Source: Escherichia coli O157:H7
GTDB taxonomy: Bacteria > Pseudomonadota > Gammaproteobacteria > Enterobacterales > Enterobacteriaceae
Strand: one strand, 5' to 3'
DNA: 64,000 nucleotides
Assembly (NCBI RefSeq): GCF_013167455.1
Contig: NZ_CP038328.1
Every line of letters starts with the position of its first letter. The first letter of the stretch is position 1. Positions 60,001-63,000 of this stretch are shown in pieces. Made by a program: the position numbers.

Positions 60001-63000
60001 GCTAATGAGAAAAGGAAATATGAGGCTTCAACTCTAAAAAGAGAATTATCGAAAAAGGATAAAAGGAAAAGATATAGGTTGTAGTGTTTGTATGATTTTC
60101 ATTAGACTTACTTAATCTATAGTCTAAATTTTAATATTAGATTCGTAAATCTATAATTCCATGAATCTAATTAATGCTTAAAAGCATCCTCTAAGATGCT
60201 TTTACTGTTACCATGCATACATACCCAGAACCTTTAACAAACGATAATAGAGGGGAGTTGTGTATAACAACTCCCTGACCTTACTAAGGTTAGCGATGTT
60301 ATTCAGCATCATTCTGTCAAAGATTTAATTTCTTTGAAAAATACTAATTCTACCCCTTAAGTTAATAACTTCTGCTTGATCGTGTATTTTGGTAAGTTGG
60401 AGTACAATTTTTTGATTGGATCGTCAATAAGAAAAAGCTAGAATCCTTAGAAGGACATAGATTTTCATAGGGTTAAGATATGACGATTGCGAAGGATAGT
60501 TCGACTGATGAAATCATTCATGGAAATGATCTCCGTGGAATGGATGATTTTTACATTAAGACAACGAGTTTTGAATGCCCATACGAGCCTTGTAAAATTA
60601 AAGCCACACCTTGTAGTTTTACTATGAAACATGTTAATCAATCATATTTCAGATATGGCGATAAACATAAGGATGGATGTGGTATTCATGATCCAAGATA
60701 TAAAAACAATCATACTTCAAATGACGAAAGAAAACATAATTCGCCACCTGCTCCGGTTATATCACTTTTAAAAATTGATGTGAAACCAAGAGGTGGTGTT
60801 AAAAATGCCAGAAATATTAAAAATGAAAATCACAAGGATGAAAAAAAAGGTAATGAACATCCTGTATCTTCATCAAGTATTAAGCCAGTCGTTGACTATT
60901 ACATAAATAATAGCAATCATAATGAACAGCTATCAATCCCTCCATATGGCACGCGATCTTATAAAGATACATTTCAACTTATTTTTTACAAAAACAACAT
61001 ACGTTATTACAAACCTGCTATTTATTATGGTGTAGCCCAGTCTAATATTCGTCTGCATGAAGATTCAGATAAACATTGTATTACTTTCCTCGCAAGGGAT
61101 AAGAAAACCCAAAAACCATTTACGCTTGAAATTGATGTTTCTGACTGGAATAAAAGTCAGAAGGATGTGTTTTGGAAGGAATATGAAAAGCAAAGGAAGG
61201 AAGCTGATAGGTATTATAAGGGGCTTAAAGATAAAAGGAATGCTAAAAAATACTTGACGGTTTTCTTTTTTGGGATGCCGGATGAAAATGATAAGTTTCT
61301 ATTTAAGACAAACCACTTTAAATTAGTATATGTGGCTTTCTTGGGTAAATTTGAAAGCTCATATAATGATAGTAATTATTACATTGAAAATGATCTGTCT
61401 GTATCATCATTGAATGAACAACCCATTTCATTATCTGATATAGACCATAAAAATCATGAATATAATATTGAAACTTCATTAGATTTTAGTTCTCCTTTGC
61501 CAGAGCCAGAGCCAGAGCCAGAGCCAGAGCCAGAGCCAGAGCCAGAGCCAGAGCCAGAGCCAGAGCCAGAGCCAGAGCCAGAGCCAGAGCCAGAGCCAGA
61601 GCCAGAGCCAGAGCCAGAGCCAGAGCCAGAGCCAGAGCCAGAGCCAGAGCCAGAGCCAGAGCCAGAGCCAGAGCCAGAGCCAATAAGATCCTCTTTAAAG
61701 GAAAATACTGAGACTGTAGAAATGAACAGTAAAGTTTGGGGGAGGCTGAAAAAGATAATCACTTTCTTTAAAAAGTGATTTATGTTTCTGTAAAAAGCCC
61801 GTAGGTATCAACTGCGGGCTAAATTTTCCCTTGATGCTGGTTTTGTCTTTTATCTAAAAAATGCCAGTCTTCACGTTGCTTGTTCCAGCATTAAAGATGT
61901 ATGTGCTGACTTTTTCGCCTTTGAAAGAAACTGTCAGAGATTTAGTTTGTGAGTCTGCGCCACCTGCAAGCAGTCCCACAACGGGGATGAAAGAGGTTGC
62001 TTTGGACTGGCTGTTATACATAGTGTATGACCATTGTTCTTCACCATCGATCAAAGAACGGCTGTCAGGTTCACCGAACGATGCTAACACGTCCTGTTTT
62101 GTAGTTTTGCCTTTAACAATTTTGGTTTTCACACTTTCCTGCGTCTCATTTTTCAATGACTGGTTGCCTACTGAAGAACAACCTGCCAAGGTCAGAAAAA
62201 CGAATCTATATGAGAGTTTTTTGTACCTGAGACTAAATCGCCCTCCCAATGCCCTAGAGAGCGTCTGTTATCGATATTTCGGGAACGTTCGTGAATTGGT
62301 GTTCCGTTCACTATGTTAATCGTACCTCTTTCGCCTTTGCGGGTATGACGCCTGCCATGGCGAAGGCTATGCGACCGTCGCAGATGCTGTATATTCAGGT
62401 GGTGTAGCGCTTCACGGCTACGAAAGTACAGCGTTTTATAAATTGTCTCAGGTGATATTCGCAGCGTTTTTTGACGTGGTTTTGTTCGCCTTAACCATCC
62501 TGATATTTGCTCTGGAGACCATTTCATCTCCAGCTTTTCCAGAACAAGCTTTCGCAATGGTAAATTTTGATCCAGTAAGCACGGTTTTGGCCTTTTCGCC
62601 ATTCTGTTGGCTCGGTTATTAGCATCAACAGCTTTGTAATAGCGTCTGCCCCGATTACGCTGAACTTCACGTGAGATCGTCGAAGGACTGCGATTCAGCG
62701 CAGTAGCTATCGCACGAATGCTCATTTTGGCTGACAAACCAGCTCGTATCTCCTCGCGCTCAGACAGTGTCAGGTGAGCTACAGCCCGCTTACGCTCATG
62801 GGGTTTTATGCCGCCAGTATCCCTTAACATAGTGAAGATCGTTCCGGGTTTTGAACCCAGGATATTCGCTATTTCACTGAAGCCTGTTCCGTTCTTCCAT
62901 AGTTCAAAAACAGAGGCTTTTTCCTCTGCTGTAAATGTTCGTCTCATTCAAAAAACCTCCGCAACCCCATGTTTTCACATAACTGTTGCGTTGACCAATT

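Follow-up and report, generated by a model that had tools for sequence, protein, structure and literature searches.

What does a perfect hexanucleotide repeat do inside a bacterial gene – does it throw a switch, set the length of a protein segment, or perhaps exist only as an error of assembly? The question is raised by a stretch of 64,000 nucleotides (nt) from Escherichia coli O157:H7 (RefSeq assembly GCF_013167455.1, contig NZ_CP038328.1), analysed here at its full length and referred to below as the window, in which some 30 uninterrupted copies of the unit GAGCCA lie within an open reading frame (ORF) orthologous to ECs_3507, a hypothetical protein in the annotation of the Sakai genome. The answer has two parts: the array is an already published marker of O157 strain typing, and it is very probably a site of in-frame slippage whose effect is confined to the length of a weakly constrained, disordered linker.

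A coding repeat and a typing marker

Tandem Repeats Finder places the array at 61499–61682 on the plus strand (period 6, 30.7 copies, 100% matches, 0 indels, score 368), a span of 184 bp in the assembled window. Read in frame, it consists of 30 whole CCAGAG codon pairs (61500–61679) followed by CCA (61680–61682), the codon-pair count (CCAGAG)30 + CCA being another way of writing (GAGCCA)n or, on the other strand, TGGCTC. A preliminary description of the window, made from the sequence alone, had drawn attention to this perfect repeat within an ORF and let it begin at 61498, one base too early: the G at 61499 continues the periodicity of the array, and the T at 61498 falls outside it. The uninterrupted character of the repeat and its location in a genuine gene are both upheld. 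The array is in frame within an ORF of 432 amino acids (60480–61778, +), and comparison with homologues from Xenorhabdus, Yersinia and Pantoea and with a second E. coli allele gives ratios of nonsynonymous to synonymous substitution (dN/dS) of 0.15–0.21, values that indicate purifying selection on the repeat gene. The encoded product is L(PE)30P, with Leu ahead of the tract, (Pro–Glu)30 at residues 341–400 and Pro401 next. Chance occurrence is not an issue for such an array. Reading the other strand yields (GS)n and (AL)n ORFs, which were rejected as by-products of the repeat, the plus frame being the only one that homologues keep in both flanks; nor is the repeat DNA notable for secondary structure, its minimum free energy of -6 kcal/mol (z = -0.75) being no better than that of shuffled sequences.

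The locus had in fact been found before, and more than once: it was reportedly named TR2 by Noller in 2003, Vhec1 by Lindstedt in the same year and O157-10 by Keys in 2005. The published TR2 primers (PMC2246123, Table 2) have exact and unique matches in the window on both sides of the array – GGAAGGAAGCTGATAGGT at 61195–61212 (+) and CGCAGTTGATACCTACGG at 61799–61816 (-) – from which an amplicon of 622 bp (30 units) is predicted. The published unit, given as TGGCTC in the same table, is the reverse complement of GAGCCA, and the identity of TR2, Vhec1 and O157-10 with one another is stated in Table 1 of PMC3768571 and in PMC2246123. With primers, unit, position and hypervariability in agreement and no differences at the DNA level, the array is, as judged by these sequence matches, the published hypervariable locus TR2/Vhec1/O157-10 of multiple-locus analysis of variable-number tandem repeats (MLVA), already known and rediscovered here; the preliminary description was right about the array itself and passed over this identity. 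In the parts of the MLVA literature available, the locus figures as an anonymous marker, and the protein that it encodes is not described there.

That literature documents its instability in some detail. TR2 is the most polymorphic variable-number tandem repeat (VNTR) of O157, with a diversity index of 92% (PMC2246123). During parallel serial passage (PMC3777172), O157-10 gave 41 of the 57 mutation events, at a rate of 1.3e-4 to 4.8e-4 per generation in strains with 23–43 units, the changes being whole-unit insertions and deletions, often of several units together.

The same picture emerges from complete genomes, 313 of which (out of 5426 for E. coli) carry the repeat gene. Across about 60 of the gene-bearing genomes, evenly spaced down the ranking and supplemented with the extremes, the length of the gene runs from 1143 to 1431 bp, and every O157 length in this sample differs from that of the window by a multiple of 6, which corresponds to approximately 4.7 to 52.7 copies. 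Three O157 alleles inspected directly contain 4, 24 and 52 units of pure CCAGAG between identical flanks; two alleles of a non-O157 type (98% identical) have 22 and 29 units, equally pure and with identical flanks, and have in addition a 3-nt indel at another place in the gene. Outside the repeat, the ECs_3507 gene of the window is 100% identical to that of O157:H7 genomes. Two genomes that share with the window a rare 1,922-bp deletion – its junction, at 54291, is common to only 4 of the 5426 complete genomes – have 10.7 and 21.7 copies as against 30.7 here, so that even the closest relatives still differ by 10–20 units. Slipped-strand changes that keep the frame and alter the spacer length, as the preliminary description envisaged, are therefore what the steps of 6 in O157 and the purity of all five inspected alleles bear out, and the comparison of repeat numbers among genomes that it recommended reveals polymorphism and not an invariant copy number, as 20 years of PCR sizing had already shown.

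Only one other perfect microsatellite occurs in the full 64 kb, and it too is an MLVA locus. This is (TATTTC)11.8 at 63024–63094, known as TR1/Vhec4/O157-9, with a published unit of AAATAG; the TR1 primers match exactly at 62875–62894 (+) and 63167–63186 (-), bracketing the array. By mapping to Sakai, the TR1 array is intergenic, with an IS30 remnant on one side and the endonuclease gene ECs_3504 on the other, and an ORF of 86 amino acids that runs across it is probably spurious.

The encoded protein and its relatives

What is new relative to the known marker is its context: the array sits in a constrained gene of a widespread family related to Avs8B, some members of which possess equally variable arrays. 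The protein begins with a folded domain (approximately residues 1–310; 60480–61409, +), in which C33, C38, H63 and C67 form a CCHC motif invariant in 52 sequences, and whose β-rich part yields weak matches to folds of the oligonucleotide/oligosaccharide-binding (OB) type. In the PADLOC collection, the match of this domain to PD-Lambda-4_B is significant but partial (residues 151–284, profile positions 161–294 of 303, E 1.9e-7). An exhaustive search gave 64 representative relatives, and all but one of the roughly 300-residue relatives tested match PD-Lambda-4_B over its full length (E 3.9e-24 to 1.7e-57); the N-domain of ECs_3507 is therefore assigned, by this chain of profile matches, as a probable distant member of the PD-lambda-4_B/Avs8B family. 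PD-lambda-4 has been renamed Avs8, and a preprint (bioRxiv 10.1101/2025.07.02.662641) describes Avs8B as a protein that resembles no described protein recognisably and that defence can do without. As Avs8B is dispensable, kinship with it is no proof that ECs_3507 acts in defence. The two proteins have in common the homologous N-domain and the CCHC motif, shared across the alignment; they differ in that proteins of the Avs8B type, at about 300 residues, lack the disordered linker, the repeat array and the C-terminal helix. Other searches returned little: the family alignment matched no Pfam family, a profile search against PDB sequences found no match, and a single family member gave a faint match to CoiA_N (E 7e-3).

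Ahead of the array lies the non-repeat part of the linker (61410–61498, +), acidic and Ser-rich, unconserved in homologues, with a low predicted local distance difference test (pLDDT) score and no secondary structure from approximately residue 311. After the array comes a C-terminal tail of 31 residues (61683–61775, +), which, by prediction, ends in a helix of some 12–15 residues that is basic and amphipathic (approximately nt 61737–61772). An AlphaFold2 model of a 380-residue allele has a confident N-domain, disorder at 311–366 and a helix at 368–379. The longer relatives examined (20–40% identity) repeat this plan – an N-domain, an unconserved linker rich in Pro, Glu, Ser and Thr, the length of which varies from tens of residues to about 140, and a short, basic, aromatic, hydrophobic tail. 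As a low-pLDDT predicted helix with a net charge of +6 and a hydrophobic moment of 0.47 (0.57 for the membrane-targeting sequence of FtsA), the O157 tail may be likened to the C-terminal targeting sequences of the MinD/FtsA type; the tails of homologues have moments of 0.4–0.75 and net charges of +1 to +6, several of them reaching a shuffle p of 0.006–0.03 and others not being significant. We infer that the helix may act as a tether, most plausibly a membrane-binding one, on a disordered spacer. Assuming a polyproline-II conformation, an extended geometry with about 3.1 Å per residue, 4–52 units would span approximately 2.5 to 32 nm.

Alternating Pro–Glu tracts serve elsewhere as extended, rigid spacers, and it is this alternating composition that makes the protein match Trypan_PARP in Pfam (E 8.5e-5) and TonB in NCBIfam (E 0.057); like a match to DnaX in NCBIfam, these are confined to the repeat and far below the curated cut-offs, and were rejected. 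The likeness to the (Glu–Pro)n/(Lys–Pro)n segment of TonB and the (EP)n of trypanosome procyclin is one of composition and not of homology: ECs_3507 is without the C-terminal domain of TonB, no N-terminal membrane anchor or signal peptide could be seen by reading its sequence, and the spacers of those proteins do not count as hypermutable microsatellites in the way that this array does. Another parallel is the Ser–Asp stalk of staphylococcal ClfA, an in-frame tandem repeat that forms a low-complexity spacer between domain and anchor, varies in length among isolates and has been used in typing. Such stalks resemble the present array in being length-variable, in-frame repeat spacers put to use in typing; they differ in belonging to secreted, wall-anchored proteins of Gram-positive bacteria and in having longer, imperfect units, whereas ECs_3507 appears to be cytoplasmic or membrane-peripheral and its array is perfectly pure.

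How did the array arise? At the same position, Yersinia has L(PE)2P, Pantoea has (PE)3, encoded as CCTGAG CCTGAG CCTGAA, and Xenorhabdus has (PE)5 in pure CCAGAG; these short motifs at one site show that the O157 array grew out of an older one. A further lineage, 61% identical in the N-domain and found both in Citrobacter and in 253 complete genomes of E. coli, one of them CFT073, carries at the same linker position a 9-nt unit, GCTGAGGTT, which encodes (Ala–Glu–Val)n and is followed by a conserved tail, KIWTGIRKLISFFKK. In this paralogue, 50 of the 55 sampled lengths differ by exact multiples of 9, with a range of 4–62 copies; three alleles inspected directly, with 4, 24 and 62 units, are pure, a 1-nt deletion is present in one, and short-read assemblies have N-gaps inside the array. 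The CFT073 copy (locus L015, 6712–8004; the paralogue is also present in L010, L011, L012 and L016–L018) ends 131 bp upstream of qatA of the QatABCD defence system, and the sampled genomes show the same KAP NTPase neighbour. A literature search found no description of this 9-nt (AEV)n VNTR, and a search with the unit gave nothing relevant.

Still more distant relatives carry arrays of both types. Homologues on pVA1-type plasmids of Vibrio parahaemolyticus, of the acute hepatopancreatic necrosis disease (AHPND) type, are about 24–28% identical to ECs_3507 and have (AEV)n encoded by a synonymous unit, GCTGAAGTT; the copy numbers on the two plasmids (pVPE61a and pV110; loci L025, 901–2028, and L026) are 16.2 and 11.2; on pV110, the gene is annotated as split. 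In a lineage with 23–24% identity (L022, 6001–7900; L023 and L024), where the locus has a G+C content of 42% and adjoins a P2-like prophage and an integrase, the array opens, as it does in O157, with TTG CCAGAG CCAGAG CCA; three assemblies break there, and beyond the gap the protein resumes as ...EPEPEP before a basic tail. Linkers of the two types are thus spread over Enterobacterales, a Vibrio plasmid lineage and a third lineage, with N-domains 23–28% identical. As gauged by a matrix of identities and a rough neighbour-joining tree without support values, the type of repeat does not track the relatedness of the N-domains – a mismatch that could reflect convergence, the exchange of linker–tail modules, or a linker that tolerates any sequence.

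Genomic surroundings and other features of the window

The window, a piece of the O157:H7 chromosome, starts with the srl operon and continues by way of recA, alaS, csrA, the serV/arg tRNA cluster, ileY and ypjA into a low-GC island (0.31–0.37), which is opened by a GInt-type module with a helix–turn–helix gene ahead of it and the tRNA gene ileY (47344–47419) further upstream. The module (55020–59573, +), equivalent to Sakai ECs_3512–3509, comprises two tyrosine recombinases (55020–56231 and 56221–57546), a GinC-like protein of recombinase fold annotated as a DNA-binding protein (57543–59174) and a GinD-like protein of 132 amino acids (59175–59573). The gene order ginA–ginB–ginC–ginD, by which the 5′ end of a GInt is recognised (PMC5385486), is present in the window, and ECs_3510 and ECs_3509 are listed in supplementary file 10 of PMC10214605, the GInt source data cited by that paper. 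Insertion sequences (IS) of the IS3/IS600 kind interrupt the GinC-like gene of two non-O157 genomes.

The repeat gene of O157 lies two ORFs downstream of this module, from which it is separated by a small hypothetical gene (59671–60084, +; the ECs_3508 equivalent by Sakai mapping) that gave no match in family searches. On its other side, a BamE-domain lipoprotein gene, equivalent to ECs_3506, is convergent with it (61854–62156, -); the Xenorhabdus homologue, too, is followed by a related gene of the BamE kind (L002, 11714–12016), which suggests that the two genes form a conserved unit in that sub-clade. Further on in Sakai come the IS30 remnant and genes assigned to prophage Sp17. A search of 50,697 phage genomes with tblastn found no homologue, so that the idea of a phage gene was rejected and the Sp17 label is to be read as a regional annotation. 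Scans for promoters and terminators around the repeat gene gave no more sites than in shuffled sequences, and a scan of 54000–64000 for RNA families found no matches.

In Pantoea and Enterobacter, the homologue stands immediately after the ginD-like gene. The O157 locus thus shares with the known mobile GInt islands (ginABCD; Bardaji 2017, Idola 2023) a ginABCD-type module close to the repeat gene, but the latter lies outside the four defining recombination genes, and other members of the family have no gin genes in their vicinity, residing in defence islands or on plasmids. These members are neighbours of QatABCD and CBASS, of an OLD-family ATPase, of type I restriction–modification (R–M) genes, of a NERD protein with a giant helicase or of a GTPase conflict system, or are borne on plasmids; judging by such neighbourhoods, defence islands and mobile elements are the company in which the family travels. 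No STAND NTPase gene of the Avs8A kind was found near ECs_3507, whose neighbours are the GInt recombinases, small hypothetical genes, the BamE-like gene and the IS30 remnant.

Several further features of the window deserve mention in their own right. Relative to Sakai, the 1,922-bp deletion with its junction at 54291 takes away the last 751 bp of the autotransporter gene ypjA/ehaD (its β-barrel end), the spacer between the two genes and roughly 745 bp from the start of the DUF6387 gene ECs_3514, leaving a fusion ORF (50327–54397) that joins ypjA to the DUF6387 gene. Just before the junction, at 54005–54092, an imperfect repeat of 12/24/36 nt encodes PNPDPNPNPNPNPKPDPKPDPKPDPKPDPTPEPTPTP, a proline-rich linker of the ypjA autotransporter, and two genomes match the junction region over a span shorter by 24 nt, at 98% identity. 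In the serV–argV/Y/Z/Q cluster, the repeated tRNA-Arg(ACG) genes are due to a 179-bp tandem duplication at 13108–13442 (1.9 copies, 95% identity). Finally, srlA is a pseudogene in the Sakai annotation – in the window, the corresponding region is approximately 2,400–3,900, as estimated by mapping from Sakai – which presumably fits the sorbitol-negative phenotype of O157:H7.

Slippage, selection and artefact

The reading that best accommodates these data is a simple one. In this strain, whole CCAGAG units would be gained and lost through replication slippage; loops the size of the 6-nt unit would be expected to escape mismatch repair. As the unit comprises two codons, the sole outcome is a change in the length of the (Pro–Glu)n segment, with no on/off switching. 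This segment lies within a disordered, acidic linker between the CCHC N-domain on one side and, on the other, a short basic C-terminal helix, the probable role of which is to hold the protein at the membrane or on a partner. If both sequence and length of the linker are weakly constrained, the products of slippage would be tolerated and accumulate, and it would be because of this accumulation that the locus works as a typing marker. We consider it highly probable that the array is just this: a known VNTR, subject to in-frame slippage, with an effect on nothing but the length of a weakly constrained linker.

Several points nonetheless weigh against it. The near-neutrality of length, which we infer, is an assumption, and the fact that distant relatives, too, have pure arrays of (PE)n and (AEV)n could mean instead that the repeats are selected. 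The terminal helix has a pLDDT of only 55–60 or so in the AlphaFold2 model, and 11% of shuffled sequences attain the hydrophobic moment of the O157 tail, whose amphipathicity is therefore not statistically exceptional. Copy numbers taken from public assemblies may hold some errors, and one (AEV)n allele, as noted above, has a 1-nt deletion within its array. A literature search for ECs3507 found no papers.

The main competitor holds that variability itself is selected: the array would be maintained as a 'mutable ruler', whose rapid in-frame changes of length vary how far the tether reaches from a membrane-bound helix to the CCHC/OB-like domain, or what charge it bears, and so make populations heterogeneous in a function related to defence or to mobile elements, a proposal that we find unlikely. 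Its appeal comes from the relatives. Several lineages have in-frame arrays at one and the same place in the linker – (AEV)n in E. coli and Vibrio, (PE)n in the lineage with 23–24% identity – the repeat type does not follow the N-domain tree, and members of the family adjoin QatABCD and CBASS, OLD-family ATPase, type I R–M and GTPase conflict systems as well as GInt recombinases. Generalised to the family, the proposal would have the tailed, Avs8B-like branch repeatedly evolving or exchanging pure in-frame linkers of two types, Pro–Glu (6-nt units) and Ala–Glu–Val (9-nt units), which we doubt, and the doubt extends to this claim taken jointly with its corollary that the arrays are a selected device for length diversity between a membrane-anchoring helix and a zinc- and nucleic-acid-binding, OB-like domain, in a protein that moves with GInt elements and defence islands. 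Yet a disordered linker that tolerates any length would gather microsatellites without selection, and the conservation of frame says little, given that a gene that stays intact can retain only in-frame units. The 13-fold range (4–52 units) within a young clone speaks against an optimum of length, and Avs8B, the sole relative to have been tested, is dispensable for defence.

Could the tract, or its copy number, be a product of mis-assembly instead? The preliminary description had rightly warned that such perfect repeats are hot spots of assembly error. A cluster of 1019 'partial' database proteins stops exactly at '...DFSSP', right before the repeat, and contigs of homologues end at or inside their arrays or hold scaffold N-gaps there; many database proteins are 'partial' because short-read assemblies and gene calls break at the array, which at 184 bp exceeds a typical short read. 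An artefact is nevertheless very improbable: an array of variable length is found in hundreds of complete genomes, PCR sizing and sequencing in independent MLVA and passage studies have recovered it, and at least one complete genome, FRIK804, has a gene of exactly the 1299 bp seen in the window.

Least likely of all is a contingency (phase-variation) locus whose repeat changes would switch the gene or a neighbour on and off, an analogy that the preliminary description drew and of which the hypermutable, in-frame repeat stands and the switching falls, given that the unit is 6 nt long, every inspected E. coli allele is in frame with its C-terminal tail intact, the array is internal to the ORF, some 1 kb from its start, with a convergent gene downstream (which makes effects on promoter spacing implausible), and the repeat DNA is unstructured (z = -0.75) and without RNA family matches.

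The value of the locus in O157:H7 is practical rather than conceptual: it is the most discriminating and the least stable marker of MLVA outbreak typing, and both gene calling and the assembly of short reads go wrong at it. The arrays of its relatives may furnish new VNTR markers for non-O157 E. coli and for Vibrio plasmids of the AHPND type. For the family as a whole, in-frame slippage in a tolerant linker – the reading preferred here – would make these arrays a clear example of disordered linkers breeding microsatellites; if their variability should turn out to be selected, they would represent programmed diversification of linker length in a cytoplasmic or membrane-peripheral bacterial protein, of which the O157 marker would be one visible case.

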